64,000 nt of DNA, from the NCBI RefSeq assembly GCF_964213995.1, contig NC_135804.1, positions 26,846,001-26,910,000 of the forward strand, given 5' to 3'. This document shows, one piece after another, positions 6,767-50,391 of the stretch. This DNA comes from Mustelus asterias (Eukaryota). The stretch's first letter is position 1. Every line of letters begins with the position of its first letter. The notes under the pieces were generated by a model. The model was not told the DNA's origin. It made no database searches and was given only the letters and a program-made list of their open reading frames with translations. Made by a program: the position numbers and the translations under genes.

Positions 6767-7400
6767 TTTCAATTTGATTTATTATTGTCACGTATATCAG
6801 TATACAGTGAAAAGTATTGTTTCTTTATTGTCACATATATCAGTATACAGTGAAAAGTATTCTTTATTGTCACATACATCAGTATACAGTGAAAAGTACC
6901 AACCCTACCCACCAACTCTACCTCCATTCACCTGATGAAGGAGCAGCCTCTGAAAGCTCCTGATTCCAAATAAACCTGTTGGACTTTTTAACCTGTCACA
7001 TGTATCAGTATACAGTGAAAAGTATCGTTTCTTTAGCATTATACGGGCAAAGCATGCCATACATAGAGCACATAGGAGAGAAGGAAAGGAGAGGGTGCAG
7101 GCTATAGTGTTACAGTCGTAGCAGCTCGGGGTAGAGAAAGATCAACTTAATATAAGGTAGTTCCATTCAAAAGTCTGATGGCAGCAAGGAAGGAGCTGTT
7201 TTTGATTCAGTGACCTCAGACTTTTGTATCTTTTTCCCCACAGTAGAAGGTGGAAGAGAGAATGTCTGGGGTGCATGGGATCCTTGATTATGCTGACTGC
7301 TTTTCCAAGGCAGGGGAAGTGTAGACAGCGTCAATGTTTGCATGATGGACTGGGCTTCGTTCACAACCCTTTAAAGTTTCTTGCGGTCTTGAACAGAGCA
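6767..7400 (-). mobile_element. Rex1/Babar-type LINE 3' end with local tandem duplications and a Penelope insertion
   Basis: CLGKAVSIIKDP.HP..SLFHLL remnant; AATAAATCAAAT tail; related fragment at 24352-24527. Confidence 0.6.
6898..6993 (+). mobile_element. Penelope 3' fragment with degenerate hammerhead
   Basis: TCAC-CTGATGA-AGGAGCAGCCTCT-GAAAGCTC then CCAAATAAACCTGTTGGACTTT. Confidence 0.65.
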
Positions 7401-8327: not shown

Positions 8328-8398
8328 TGATGTGGAGATGCCGGCGTTGGACTGGGGTAAACACAGTAAGAGTTTTAACCTGGTGTTGTTAAAACTCT
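8328..8398 (-). mobile_element. Minimal Penelope-derived fold-back insertion
   Basis: Same terminus; TSD TACTGGTGGACA at 8316-8327 / 8399-8410. Confidence 0.78.
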
Positions 8399-9654
8399 TA
8401 CTGGTGGACACCCAGGCATGGTCAGCTAATCCTTGGATATCTCGCCTTTCTTGGTTTGGTCGTCTATATTTACTTGGCTGCGCGGGTAGTGACAGTGGTT
8501 ACTTGGCTCATGGAATGTAGGATGGTTATATCACCGTTGTTAGGGTTCCTTTGATAAGTGGAAATGGATGGCGTCTCATTGATGGCGGGGCCTAAGTGGC
8601 ATCTCAGGAGTGCCTAGAGATAGGGGTAGTTTGCTTTGTTCAATGTATGAGTGATGTCAGTATCCTTGGCCTGTCAGCCCTTATTGTAGTGTGTTATTGA
8701 TCCTAGTTTAGCTTGATTGAGGAGGTTAGGGCAGTAGTAACTATGTTTATCCGGGTCAGGTGAAGGGTATGTTGGGCAGGGGAGTAGGTCACCCTCCCCT
8801 GAGATATCACCTTTTGGGGGCTTCTGGACTGCTCTCCTTCTTGAGACTTAGTTCCCCTGGGGATTTGAATCCTGTTGACTGCGAGGCCTGAGTGCAAGTC
8901 AAAGTGTTCCGGTTCAGCACTGATCAGAGTCTTTCTTCAGTTGAAGATTAGGCTGGACGGAGATGGAGTAGATTGTATTCCTCCAAGTGGTCTTATTCTA
9001 GGACTTCCTCCTTCTTGAGGCTTGGGTTCCCCTGGCGTGGGCTGTATCCTGTTTCGTATGAGGTTCTGTTCTGTTCTGTCCCTGGTATCCTTTTTGAAAA
9101 GGTATGCAGAGCTAGCCAACATCTTGCATCTATTGGCTAATCCTGGTGTTCCTTTCTCTCGGGGTCCTCTCTTTATCTGGATGGTGAGGTGCTGATACAG
9201 CTCTGATTTGTTAGGATAAATTTTCCAGTCCTGCCAGCTGTGGGAATCATTGCAGGTGGGACAGAAAATTCAGCGGACCATTAAAGGTCCGTTGACCTTG
9301 GGTGGGAATTTCTGGTCTTGGGGTGCTTGCAGCCAGAAAATCACACCTATCATATTTAATTCTAGAGGGTTTTCCTCATCTTGTAAGGAGGAAAATTATA
9401 TCCTCCCCGAGTTTTCCCGTGTCTTGATGATTTACCACCTTGTCAGTAGGGTTTCCTTGGGGGGGGGGGGGATGGATTAGGTTTTCCAGTGATGATTGAT
9501 CCTAAACGACATCTCTGATATGGCTACAGTGAGGTTTATTGTGTTGAGTGTTTTGGCGTGGCACAAATCCTTAGCTTACTAACTCCTGTATGAATGTACA
9601 CAGCCACATCTTATACGGATGGCAGTAGCCTGATGTTCCCCCTTTTCTAGTAAA

Positions 9655-20489: not shown

Positions 20490-22552
20490 GAACAAACAAA
20501 GAACAATACAGCACAGGAACAGGCCCTTCGGCCCTCCAAGCCCGCGCCACTCCCCGGTCCAGGATTGAATCCTGAATCCCCGCCCAATTTTCCAGCCTAT
20601 CTACATCCTAATATCCTATCCACCGAGCTGTCCCTCACAGCTACGATGCTTTGTTCATCACAACCTATTAACTCACCCCCACCCCCCCATTCCAGACCAT
20701 GTGATCTCCAGGGAGAGGCGAAAACCCAGAGTGAAAACCCCAGGGCCAATATGGGGAAAAAAAAATCTGGGAAATTCCTCTCCGACCCCCTGTGGCGATC
20801 GAAACGAGTCCAGGAGATCACACTGGCCCCGATCAGAAAATGCTTCCCAACCCTATTCATTTCCACTTCTGCTTTACGAACACCATCTGAATTCCCTGCC
20901 CCCGAGACAGGTTCCCAACTATCCGCAGTCTCGCTCTGTACTGGCACCAGCAAGATGATCATAGAATGAAGCCTTGAAACAAGAAACAAAGAACAATTAG
21001 CCCGCGCCGCTCCCTGGTCCAAACTAGACCACTCTTTTGTATCCCTCCATTCCCACTCCGTTCATATAGCTGTCTAGATAAGTCTTAAACGTTCCCAGTG
21101 TGTCCGCCTCCACCACCTTGCCTGGCAACACATTCCAGGCCCCCACGACCCTCTGTGTAAAATATGTCCTTCTGATATCTGTGTTAAACCTCCCCCCCTT
21201 CACCTTGAACCTATGACCCCTCGTGAACGTCACCACCGACCCGGGGAAAAGCTTCCCACCGTTCACCCCATCTATGCCTTTCATAATTTTATACACCTCT
21301 ATTAAGTCTCCCCTCATCCTCCGTCTTTCCAAGGAGAACAACCCCAGTTTCCCCAATCTCTCCTCATAACCAAGCCCCTCCATACCAGGCAACATCCTGG
21401 TAAACCTCCTCTGTACTCTCTCCAAAGCCTCCACGTCCTTCTGGTAGTGTGGCGACCAGAACTGGACGCAGTATCCCAAATGCGGCCGAACCAACGTTCT
21501 ATACATCTGCAACATCAGACCCCAACTTTTATACTCCATGCCCCGTCCTATAAAGGCAAGCATGCCATATGCCTTCTTCACCACCTTCTCCACCTGTGAC
21601 GTCACCTTCAAAGATCTGTGGACTTGCACACCCAGGTCCCTCTGCGTCTCTACACCCTTTATGGTTCTTCCATTTATCGTGTAGCTCCTCCCTACATTAT
21701 TCCCACCAAAATGCATCACTTCACATTTATCAGGATTGAACTCCATCTGCCATTTCTTTGCCCAAATTTCCAGCCTATCTATATCCTTCTGTAGCCTCTG
21801 ACAATGTTCCTCACTATCTGCAAGTCCTGCCAGTTTTGTGTCGTCCGCAAACTTACTGATCACCCCAGTTACTCCTTCTTCCAGATCATTTATATAAATC
21901 ACAAACAGCAGAGGTCCCAATACAGAGCCCTGCAGAACGCCACTAGTCACAGGCCTCCAGCCGGAAAAAGACCCTTCCACTACCACCCTCTGTCTTCTAT
22001 GACCAAGATGTGGAGATGCCGGCGTTGGACTGGGGTAAACACAGTAAGAAGTTTAACAACACCAGGTTAAAGTCCAACAGGTTTATTTGGTAGCAAAAGC
22101 CACACTTTTGCGTGGCTTTTGCTACCAAATAAACCTGTTGGACTTTAACCTGGTGTTGTTAAACTTCTTTCTATGACCAAGCCAGTTCTCCACCCATGAG
22201 ATCCAACCTTTTTCACTAGCCTACCATGAGGGACTTTGTCAAACGCTTTACTAAAGTCCATATAGACAACATCCACGGCCCTTCCTTCGTCAACCATTCT
22301 GGTCACTTCTTCAAAAAACACCACCAGGTTAGTGAGGCATGACCTCCCTCTCACAAAACCATGCTGACTATCGTTAATGAGTTTATTCCTTTCTAAATGC
22401 GCATACATCCTATCTCTAAGAATCTTCTCCAACAACTTCCCCACCACGGACGTCAAGCTCACCGGCCTATAATTACCCAGGTTATCCTTCCTACCCTTCT
22501 TAAATAACGGGACCACATTAGCTATCCTCCAATCCTCTGGGACCTCACCTGC
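20490..22552 (-). mobile_element. CR1 LINE, 5'-truncated, long-3'UTR variant, interrupted by a Penelope hairpin insertion
   Basis: RT ORF pieces 22145-22621 and 21024-21986 are nearly identical to the 56-59 kb copy; extra 3' UTR module. Confidence 0.92.
22008..22168 (-). mobile_element. Penelope-derived fold-back (hairpin) insertion inside the CR1 RT
   Basis: ~60-bp inverted arms; TSD TTCTATGACCAAG at 21995-22007 / 22169-22181. Confidence 0.85.
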
Positions 22553-22571
22553 AATCTTAAAGGGTTCTTTA

Positions 22572-22811
<240 letters not shown>

Positions 22812-22891
22812 TCAATTTCAGAATAGCCAATTTGGACCAAAATGTTGATTTTGTTTTCCTATTTGAATCAATATTACAGCATACAACATCA

Positions 22892-23008
<117 letters not shown>

Positions 23009-23508
23009 CTACAGGCAGAAACCAAACACGATGCATGTTAACTAAACAACCAATTTTTATAAGCGCCACACACCTTCAAGATATGTCACTAAAATTTTGA
23101 ATAAGATCCAATTTTTAAAAACTGCACAATTGAAGTAAGTAAATAGAAACTAACTTAGTGGATAGTAGAACATGTTATCACAAACTAACTCTACTCAGTT
23201 TAACATTTCAGCCTGAAATACTCTGCTAAATGTTCAGGGCAGAGGACTCAAACAGGCTAAACTCTCAATCATTCCAAGCACAAGGGGAAAGATAGGTTCA
23301 AAGTTGCTTTCTTCACATGACATAAATTCTGGATGCTTAAAAAAAATCTCTACAGGTTAAATTCTGTAGCTACTTTAAAAATTCTAAAAGGAAGATTAAC
23401 TTTTGTGGAAAGTCTTCAAGGACAGCATTGAAACAAAAGGGGCAATATTGATGCAAATGTAATAAGTCAAATCACTGTTTGTATTTACAGGGTCTGTAAT
23501 TACAAACA

Positions 23509-42480: not shown

Positions 42481-42627
42481 TTAATTCCCACTCACCTGAA
42501 GAAGGGGCTTAGAGCTTCGAAAGCTTGTGTGGCTTTTGCTACCAAATAAACCTGTTGGACTTTAACCTGGTGCTGTTAAACTTCTTACTGTGTTTACCCC
42601 AGTCCAACGCCGGCATCTCCACATCAT
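42481..42627 (+). mobile_element. Short Penelope 3' terminal insertion inside an HE1 SINE
   Basis: Ends CCGGCATCTCCACATCAT; TSD GACTGTGAGGGG at 42469-42480 / 42628-42639. Confidence 0.8.
42493..42529 (+). ncRNA. Minimal type I hammerhead ribozyme (PLE type)
   Basis: CAC-CTGAAGA-A-GGGGCT/TAG/AGCTTC-GAAA-GCTT^-GTG; palindromic AAGCTT stem III. Confidence 0.75.
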
Positions 42628-44003
42628 GACTGTGAGGGGAAACCAGAGCACCTGGAGGAAACTCATACAGACACAGGGAGAAAGTACAAACTCCACACAA
42701 ACAGTCACCCAAGGTACTGGTAGCACAGGGGCGGCACGGTAGCACAGTGGTTGGGGCGGCACGGTAGCACAGTGGTTAGCACTGCTGCTTCACAGCTCCA
42801 GGGACCTGGGTTTGATTCCCGGCTTGGGTCACTGTCTGTGTGGAGTTTTCACATTCTCCTCGTGTCTGCGTGGGTTTCCTCCAGGTGCTCCGGTTTCCTC
42901 CCACAGTCCAAAGATGTGCGGGTTAGGTTGATTGGCCATGCTAAAATTGCCCCTTAGTGTCCCGAGATGCGTAGGTTAGAGGGATTAGTGGGTAAATATG
43001 TAGGGATATGGGGGTAGGGCCTGGGTGGGATTGTGGTCGGTGCAGACTCGATGGGCCGAATGGCCTCTTTCTGTACTGTAGGGTTTCTATGACTTCTATG
43101 AAGGGTAGAATTGAACCCGGGTCCCTGATACGGTGAGGCTGCAGTACTAACCACTCTGCCACCTGGGGTCCCATTAACAGAGTAGTTTTTATTTATCTGA
43201 CAGATGCTCCACAATAGTCCATCATATACAAACCAAAAAACATTGTAGTTTTTGGACGTGACATATCTTTCAACGCAGGTCAACAACATCCTGATACACT
43301 AAGACAAAACGTTTAGGCTGACAAAATCCCAGGTTAAATACAGATGCAAACACAGAATTTTTAAAATAATTGAAATGGAGAGGATGTGTACTAAAAAAAG
43401 GAAATTTTATTGGTATATTTAATTTTAGCACATTAATAAGATGCCAACTTCCCACAACAACAAGAAAACAATGGGCCTAAAAGTTGCTTCGAAAAAACAC
43501 AGGTGTATAAAGATTTGAAATCATTTTCTTCAGCTATTCATGAGTAGAATGAGCTACTGCTATGATGTCCATTTAAATGTCTGCTAGCTGTCCACAAGTG
43601 CTGCTGGCATTAAAACAAAATTCTTACATATTTAATGTAAGAATTTAATGTATTTAAAAATGCTCAGATGTTGCACAGTGCATTGGAAACCAGTGTTGTG
43701 CCAGGAAATAATAGAATACAGCTCAGGATTTCCACAAGCCTAGAATGTCAGCCATATCTTTGTGAGACAAAGCTAGAGCAGACGACAAGCCAGGGTCAGG
43801 GCAAGAGAGAATTGGAAGCTATCTCAACATTGCAACCAGATTTTTAAAAAGCCATTTTTCCAGCATCCTTTTCTTTATATTTAAAGAGGCCATGTATTCC
43901 CTGTTGCTTTTAATACATTTTTATGTCAAACATATAAATCACATTCAAATGTTTGATGGTGAAATGAGCTGAAATCTTTTAACTTTATGACTCAAAAGAA
44001 AGA

Positions 44004-44186
44004 AAGAGTTTTAACAACACCAGGTTAAAGTCCAACAGGTTTATTTGGTAGCAAATGTCGTCAGCTGACGAAGGAGCTGGGCTCCGAAAGCGAATGGCAT
44101 TTGCTACCAAATAAACCTGTTGGACTTTAACCTGGTGTTGTTAAAACTCTTACTGTGTTTACCCCAACGCCGGCATCTCCACATCA
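44004..44186 (+). mobile_element. Penelope-derived fold-back insertion with a hammerhead core in the loop
   Basis: Inverted arms around CTGACGA-A-GGAGC/TGG/GCTCC-GAAA; flanking TCAAAAGAAA repeat. Confidence 0.8.
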
Positions 44187-48984: not shown

Positions 48985-49157
48985 TGATGTGGAGATGCCG
49001 GTGTTGGACTGGGGTAAACACAGTAAGGAGTCTAACAACACCAGGTTAAAGTCCAACAGGTTTATTTGGTAGCAAACGCCACTAGCTTTCGGAGGCTAGT
49101 GGCGTTTGCTACCAAATAAACCTGTTGGACTTTAACCTGGCGTTGTTAGACTCCTTA
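48985..49157 (-). mobile_element. Penelope-derived fold-back insertion
   Basis: ~64-bp inverted arms around TTTCGGAG; same terminus GATGTGGAGATGCCGG. Confidence 0.8.
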
Positions 49158-50391
49158 CCATAATAATCCCTCAGAGCTACTGGTCCCAGGCTGAAAAATG
49201 ATCTTGTTCAAGATGTCGACAACTGGAAAGGACTTCCCTGCCTCAAAGGGGCCAGAGACGGCATGGTGGCACAGTGATTTGCACTCACAGTGCCAGGGAC
49301 CTGGGTTCAATTCTGGCCTTGGGTGACTGCCTGTGTGGAGTTTGCACATTCTCCCTGTGCAGCCTTGTCTGTGACCCACAACAGTCTCTTTGGGTACAGT
49401 GCAGCCCTGTCACCCCACTTTGGTTGTGCTTGAGACAGAAGCTTTGCAGCGGTGAGAGAGATGGCAGCAGTGCAGTGTGATGTGCAGGTGAATATATGTA
49501 CCAACTTACCAGCATTTTAAAGTGCCTGTCTCGCTCGGCCTTCCTGACTCAGGCCACGTGAGACTCAGGTAGTGAAGCACATCCCTGGCTCCAGCATAGA
49601 ATTGTCAAAGGAGCAGAGCGAAGGAGGACATGCCTCCCTTTTACGGGGGGTGGGGTGACATCAGTGGGGGGGGGGGGGGGGGGGGGGGTGCAGGTCAGGT
49701 GGGTTGTTCGGGTGGCAAGGGGTCGTCGGGCCATCGTTCAGGTCAGGCGGGGGGGGAGTCAGACAACCAGGCTGCGGACTGAGGCCATGGAGCTGGGTCA
49801 GGGGAGAGTCGGTCAGGTCACGGGAGTTGTCAGGCCTGGGCACGTGTGGGACTGGGCTGAGTCAGGTCAGGGGCTCAGGTCGAGAGTGTGGGGAATACGT
49901 GCAGCTTTCCCATGTGGGTCTTTAAAATAGTTACGCTGAAGTTAGAAGGGCTTTTATTTGTTTCAGAGTAACGATGAGGATAGAACTGGAGTTCTGATGT
50001 TAGTGATTTAAATCGCTTTGTCAGATGATTCCCAGCCCAGCATAATCGTCCAGGGAAAGTTAGCCCTTGCTATGTAAACCCTTACCTGGGAACTTCTGAG
50101 AGCGATTCCCCAGCACATCTTTGGGGTTAGCCCCAAATCCGATGACGCTGGGGAGTTAGGAAGTAATGGGACGTTGTTTCTGTGATGTAGTGGCATGTTT
50201 CTATTCAGCAAACTATATAGGAACACAGGAATGTACAGGACCTGAGAAGGCTATTTCAGTCCATCTGGCCAGCACCAGAATTCAAAACTAGAAAGCACTA
50301 TTCACTAATGAAATTACTGAAATTGATTTTCTCCACAATTCCCTTTTACAGTTTCTGATGTTACAAGCCTCCAGATAAGGATTTGTCTTAA

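Follow-up and report, generated by a model that had tools for sequence, protein, structure and literature searches.

The short insertion at positions 22008-22168 of the window (the whole 64,000-nucleotide stretch of Mustelus asterias contig NC_135804.1 analysed here) represents a known form of a Neptune-type Penelope-like element (PLE), the head-to-head solo pLTR, and it was probably made from two cDNAs that were primed from two nicks in a symmetric target and whose ends were joined by end-joining repair. The hammerhead cut predicted in this family sets where the mobile RNA begins in a few percent of templates at most. The symmetric target and the twin-priming signature, both unreported in the literature searched, are of more interest than the cleavage result; the dyad target, combined with a second start at a fixed place and arm asymmetry in both directions, leads to a concrete, testable model of twin priming, and the tens of thousands of young copies in the genome make the questions of inverted structures and of cleavage countable at base resolution.

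Architecture and family of the insertion

The insertion is 161 nt long and consists of two head-to-head copies of pLTR sequence only, flanked by a target-site duplication (TSD) (Table 1). The insertion and its 13-bp TSD (21995-22007 and 22169-22181, 100% identical), as given in a preliminary description made from the sequence alone, are real; the final G of the left TSD copy also fits the element tail, so that the TSD length is 12 or 13 nt. Aligned to the reference copy from 42527 onward, the tail-bearing arm ends exactly at +1, the first base past the predicted NUH, and the inverted arm lacks the final 39 nt and ends at +59; when folded, the whole unit is a long hairpin (z -19). The focal site fits the dyad-symmetric host target described below with N16. 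Of the four inverted copies in the window, the focal one is the only one with its junction at the hammerhead site. An older, tail-less direct copy with an intact-looking hammerhead lies at 6924-6995, apparently within a long flanking duplication. The focal insertion lies within the RT region of a minus-strand LINE (21000-23200) that has an open stretch of 322 aa and that we take from its motifs to be of the CR1/L2 type; at the focal site in this LINE repeat 8 of 316 sampled copies have inserted, against 0.45 expected, and 4 of 29 look-alike loci also lie there.

Table 1. Positions of the focal insertion, its host target and related copies in the window (offsets count from the predicted hammerhead cut).
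Feature	Position	Strand	Remarks
Left half-site CTG of dyad-symmetric host target	21990..21992	+	
TSD, left copy	21995..22007	+	13 nt, 100% match to right copy
Tail-bearing pLTR arm	22008..22105	-	98 nt, +1 to +98 after predicted cut; 98% to 42527-42628
PLE 'tail', 39 nt	22008..22046	-	On tail-bearing arm only
Junction TTTT(GC), probable templated insert	22106..22111	+	Copies element +8..+13; last two T also equal template -2/-1
Inverted pLTR arm without tail	22110..22168	+	From +1 (or +3 at 22112) to +59
TSD, right copy	22169..22181	+	
Right half-site CAG of dyad-symmetric host target	22183..22185	+	
Inverted copy	8328..8403	.	Junction far downstream of cut (+48/+33)
Same-subfamily direct copy (reference)	42483..42627	+	Reads through hammerhead to -44
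Minimal type I hammerhead	42493..42529	+	Core 42496-42502 and 42519-42522, stem II 42504-42518, predicted cut after 42526
Inverted copy	43995..44186	.	Tail arm reads through hammerhead (about -29), inverted arm +5
Inverted copy	48985..49158	.	Both arms past cut (about -11 and -4)

The family is abundant and young: a 28-nt word from the tail occurs in 61,105 exact copies in the 3.68 Gb genome and a 68-nt word of the focal subfamily (A) in 18,973, and the last 600 nt of three long copies (L036, L163 and L164) are identical, which implies recent activity. It may resemble elements of cartilaginous fish. Young 5'-truncated copies retain open frames of 643-668 aa (L163:2732-4678, plus strand; L164:5326-7254 and L250:5618-7621, both minus strand). 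The proteins of the same-subfamily long copies L163 and L164 match RVT_1 (E 3e-10), and GIY-YIG is matched in one of three proteins at an E of 0.00055, under the Pfam cut-off, with the motif visible in the translation. The parent thus carries, in a single ORF, the RT and C-terminal GIY-YIG endonuclease of an EN+ PLE, with a DKG motif and two cysteines between GIY and YIG (CCHH finger) and, upstream of GIY-YIG, a CX2-5CxxC linker in the form C-X4-C-X2-C; the pLTR, the optional 30-40 nt tail, the inverted 5'-truncated copy and the TSD are all found as well. An inverted 5'-truncated copy, a one-sided tail and a TSD are described as typical of PLEs in the accessible parts of PMC8557442 and PMC3846280, and by the motif criteria set out in the former the family is classed as an EN+ PLE of the Neptune/Nematis type. 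The Penelope/Poseidon clade, which demands that the linker Zn motif be absent, was rejected, the motif being present in the parent. Also rejected was a non-LTR retrozyme, defined in the available portion of 10.64898/2026.07.22.740005 by tandem units each with a complete hammerhead; the focal unit is inverted, not tandem, and has no hammerhead core.

The closest known systems, EN+ PLEs of the Neptune/Nematis type (as far as covered by the accessible text of PMC8557442 and PMC3846280), share with the present family a pLTR with a minimal hammerhead, a head-to-head inverted 5'-truncated copy, a variable TSD, a 30-40 nt tail at one end and an RT with C-terminal GIY-YIG and CX2-5CxxC linker, but their targets are microsatellite or AT-rich, whereas here a pLTR-only unit of 161 nt sits in a dyad target with a 12-13 bp TSD.

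The minimal hammerhead and the distribution of 5' ends

The reference copy (42481-42627) carries a hammerhead with the cut predicted after 42526, as had been proposed. Judged from its conservation, the hammerhead is a real, structurally conserved motif, for which self-cleavage is predicted. The conserved core boxes, the NUH and the palindromic 15.2-16.2 pair are present, and the core columns are invariant or at least 90% conserved in 40 read-through copies that were hand-picked, partly by the GAAA box. In these copies stems I and II covary, with 93% of their cells paired and two-sided change in four of nine pairs (at the cut, for example, from C-G to U-A); none of 500 shuffles reaches the 17 cells observed, which reflect few independent events. 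Rfam hammerhead models give no match at gathering score within the window, and the free fold of the reference copy does not show the hammerhead (z 0.53), which is no surprise in a motif that lacks helix III. On the minus strand, the antisense of the 5' strand of stem I (42488-42499) reads as what we take to be a consensus-like splice donor. The minimal type I hammerheads of metazoan PLEs, in the portion of PMC4209133 available, likewise lack helix III, have a palindromic 15.2-16.2 pair and an extra nucleotide before stem II, and are predicted to act as dimers with low activity; the present motif differs in a stem I of just 3-4 bp and, in the youngest subfamily, a U at position 17, and its cleavage is a prediction.

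If cleavage defined the template, 5' ends should gather at the cut. The end counts come from a sample of 336 copies, selected solely on their 3' part (the first-listed matches plus incidental copies) and drawn from the window and the initial 48 Mb of contig C1. Repeated entries, copies preceded by <500 nt of sequence and the focal copy itself were removed. Anchored alignment against long copies located each end to within ~2 nt; some old copies were assigned to the wrong subfamily. Because about 100 copies had been chosen by an anchor reaching +7, the comparison leaves aside positions downstream of +7. Of the 336 tail-bearing arms, 260 read past -4, nine end at -3..+1 and 67 end at +2 or later, so that 260 of the 269 reaching +1 continue past -4; among 171 clean inverted arms 136 read through the site and one ends at -1/+1, which is no excess. 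With no dominant peak and with read-through of this extent, cleavage does not set the 5' end of the mobile RNA, and it is not established that a ~100-nt mobile RNA is delimited by cleavage in vivo. Nor is there a sharp peak at NUH+1 among fold-back and truncation points, which the preliminary description had anticipated: eight of 336 tail-arm ends fall at -1/+1, and the main pile-up is at -33..-37 (42490-42494 of the reference), the 5' edge of hammerhead stem I. This pile-up is strongest in the older subfamilies (48 of 57 ends outside subfamily A) and could reflect either transcription that initiates at an initiator-like word or a block to the RT; in the alignments listed, inspection by eye showed neither a cap-derived G nor a single-base start there.

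There is, nevertheless, a small step at the site. Tail arms end at rates (percent per nt at risk) of 0.72 over +2..+10, 1.50 at -1/+1, 0.35 over -2..-10, 0.82 over -11..-22, 1.33 over -23..-32 and 3.16 over -33..-37. The eight ends at -1/+1 exceed those of the next nine nt upstream (eight ends at -2..-10; p 0.005), as do the five in subfamily A (against three, among 128 tail arms; p 0.008). Compared with -2..-50, all copies together give no excess (8 observed, 6.2 expected, p 0.29; subfamily A p 0.04), and no significant excess at -1/+1 is found outside subfamily A in the 336-copy sample; in an earlier set of 316 copies -1/+1 ranks 21st of 89 two-base windows. Over +10..-1 the excess is ~15 of 277 at risk, roughly 5%, and cut RNA would accordingly be a minority template of that order. 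The step is compatible with a minority of cut templates plus trimming and is inseparable here from a local sequence hot spot. Thus, of the claim that the reverse-transcribed RNA was the 3' cleavage product, the step at -1/+1 relative to -2..-10 is what stands, against the read-through of most sampled copies; in-vivo cleavage of a few percent of templates is possible, for which the single focal insertion is weak support, and we lean slightly against the view that the first cDNA of the focal copy ended at +1 because the hammerhead had cut its RNA.

The local hot spot, with zero cleavage, is nearly as probable as its negation. Ends near +1..+7 would then reflect a C-ending cDNA priming on the G or GC of its own or its partner's AAAAGC, together with uneven RT stops on folded RNA. 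Subfamily-A ends at +3 are as common as those at +1 (four at +3, two at +1 and three at -1), and the minimal hammerheads published in PMC4209133, as far as its accessible text extends, cut poorly; bigger peaks of ends also lie elsewhere. A hot spot of this kind does not predict, however, that the end rate falls just upstream of +1, where a 6-nt palindrome at -6..-1 offers better microhomology, while ends downstream of the cut are the expectation for trimmed cut templates. A tandem jump to +1 also counts against it: a three-part insertion (L020:1480-1850) consists of an inverted arm, a copy running from +1 to ~75 nt into the ORF and a tandem copy from exactly +1, the last of which has the look of a jump between templates from the 5' end of an RNA. 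This insertion was chosen for its junction, its tandem copy being unselected. In DNA contigs of four sequencing runs, and then of one, aligned to the pLTR, loose ends were dominated by subfamily differences; two of the 11 listed X16 joints return to +1, a number too small to carry weight.

For PAc, a Poseidon element from Anolis, cleavage is protein-assisted and dispensable in vitro, with no RNA-seq ends at the site (PMC11167929); uncut RNA is its main template, as here, but no ends at the cut are reported for it, whereas a small step is seen here. Apart from that negative, no PLE 5' ends mapped to a hammerhead site were found in the literature searched (subscription papers and supplements being outside its scope), and PMC11167929 and the accessible part of PMC4209133 contain no direct evidence of in-vivo cleavage by PLE minimal hammerheads. 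R2 elements with HDV-like ribozymes offer an earlier case in which a ribozyme cut was read off genomic 5' junctions (available text of PMC3774820); their cut sets the element's 5' end, whereas here >95% of the cDNAs that reach the site continue.

The focal junction and its recurrence

Both arms of the focal unit had been said to start at the cut. This holds for the tail-bearing arm; the start of the inverted arm can be read, from the letters of the junction, as -2, +1 or +3. The four T between the arms, thought to be absent from the template, are better accounted for: the two at 22108-22109 equal template -2/-1, with the alignment of the inverted arm beginning at 42525, and TTTTGC at 22106-22111 matches the element's own +8..+13 exactly, which also accounts for the apparent mismatch C at 22111. 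The TTTT is thus probably templated, and if TTTTGC is a copy of +8..+13 the second arm may begin at +3. Of 30 look-alike loci 27 could be parsed, 25 of them with TTTTG directly after +1 (partly forced by selection), and some loci carry a second or partial copy of TTTTG; this fits priming by a terminal C on the G within the cDNA's own CAAAAG, followed by short synthesis, release and re-annealing. Family-wide, 162 unbiased pair junctions comprise 66 with microhomology, 17 blunt and 79 with inserts, and 41 of 46 inserts of at least 5 nt resemble nearby sequence more than their own shuffles do (mean 6.8 against 4.5 nt). Such synthesis may be the work of the RT or, by analogy, of host polymerase theta.

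The focal junction recurs at all 40 scored places with at least 98% identity, and the +6/+6 and +3/+6 junctions recur as much, which favours the cleavage-free hot spot; first-look candidates number 1054 for +3/+6, 514 for +6/+6 and 694 for the focal junction, numbers that are not copy numbers. A control junction at -12/-11 reaches at least 98% at only ~5 of 40 places, a result that would favour the +1..+7 zone but is diluted by stem II variants; another control, at -5/-5, comes from an older subfamily and is not comparable. Multiplication of the 161-nt hairpin as a small non-autonomous element in its own right, from one master copy, would explain the identity of 98-100% over nearly the whole unit at the 40 scored places, but the junction, the arm end and the tail end differ among the 27 parsed copies, other junctions recur equally and arm ends track the family-wide distribution, and we consider such amplification very improbable.

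Arm lengths, target symmetry and the probable priming of two cDNAs

An adjacent inverted arm is present in 209 of the 336 copies, and 139 of 171 clean inverted arms end 30-37 nt before the tail end. In 169 uncensored pairs the inverted arm is longer than its partner by >5 nt in 60 (in 33 by >20 nt), shorter in 51 and within 5 nt in 58, a nearly even balance of longer and shorter, with large asymmetries both ways (for example -15/-323 and +15/-477); in an earlier set 55 of 160 pairs lay within 5 nt, against a shuffled mean of 12.6. A TSD was detected in 144 of 162 copies, with a mode of 12-13, and rebuilding the empty targets gives TG-N16/17-CA for 97 of 125 inverted copies and for 12 of 17 direct ones, compared with 7.5% of random windows; a (C)TG-N16/17-CA(G) dyad thus surrounds the 12-13 bp TSD at 109 of 142 rebuilt sites. 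The literature searched, subscription papers and supplements being outside its scope, yielded no report pointing to a dyad PLE target.

These observations disfavour the idea that the RT turned back on its own cDNA, since an arm copied off the first cDNA cannot exceed it unless the palindrome tip is later deleted, and since the target is dyad-symmetric. The full form of that proposal, in which the hammerhead 3' product is the template and the RT runs off at +1, adds untemplated T and folds back to leave the trace of a ~100-nt mobile RNA, draws on the exact +1 end of the focal tail arm, the small step at the site, the hairpin-like units at all 40 scored places, the share of near-symmetric pairs and the covarying stems; against it are the passage through the cut of nearly all tail arms that reach it, the probably templated insert, the longer inverted arms, and the 30-37 nt stop and dyad target that it leaves unexplained. 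It is contradicted as a general rule, possible for the focal copy alone, and improbable overall. Independent stops do not account for the surplus of near-symmetric pairs, and for a share of copies this keeps fold-back alive.

The symmetric target, together with the two start sites and both-strand extension of PAc, points instead to two nicks and two cDNAs. From what is observed directly (the architecture, the TSD, the parental ORF, the symmetric target and the arm lengths) we infer four steps. A protein dimer would nick TG-N16-CA with a 12-13 nt stagger; one 3'-OH would prime at the tail end of a pLTR RNA and the other ~35 nt further in; each cDNA would halt independently, mostly past an uncut hammerhead; and the two 3' ends would be fused via 1-7 nt of microhomology, often after short templated synthesis, which in the focal copy would have yielded TTTTGC when the terminal C primed on the G of the cDNA's own CAAAAG. 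The 30-37 nt stop of the inverted arms equals the in-vitro spacing of the two RT start sites of PAc (PMC11167929) and counts for twin priming; these sites lie one tail-length apart, with both strands nicked and extended and a protein predicted to be a dimer. Those data stem, however, from another PLE clade: PAc is without the linker Zn motif that marks the clade of the present family, prefers ATT and has an ORF that starts inside the hammerhead. Two further points weigh against twin priming, in that the 58 of 169 pairs within 5 nt would need coupled synthesis, trimming or some fold-back, and asymmetric deletion at the palindrome centre after insertion could mimic a longer inverted arm.

The latter process belongs to a further reading, self-priming on antisense RNA (as in PMC3846280, in the part available) or fold-back of a single cDNA followed by asymmetric deletion of the palindrome tip, which we regard as unlikely. 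It would account for the correlated arm ends and the palindromic microhomology junctions, and self-priming has been put forward for head-to-head PLE junctions in the accessible text of that paper; the asymmetries in both directions, the templated inserts, the fixed end of the second arm and the symmetric target argue rather for two primed DNA ends. The route by which PLEs form inverted structures is called undefined in the available portion of PMC8557442.

The twin priming favoured here is comparable to that of LINE-1, in which two primed cDNAs, copies of different parts of one RNA, are joined by microhomology; short, locally templated inserts are known from polymerase theta. Here, by contrast, the two arms are copies of one and the same part, pointing to two RNAs or two passes. 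A combined account, in which symmetric twin priming (a dimer, TG-N16-CA and two starts one tail-length apart) acts on templates of which a few percent are hammerhead 3' products, would make these insertions the first record that a minimal hammerhead of a metazoan cleaves in vivo, and is put forward tentatively, as less probable than its alternatives taken together by a clear distance. A few insertions (L282, and 5 of 196 inverted copies in an earlier set) carry the tail on both arms.
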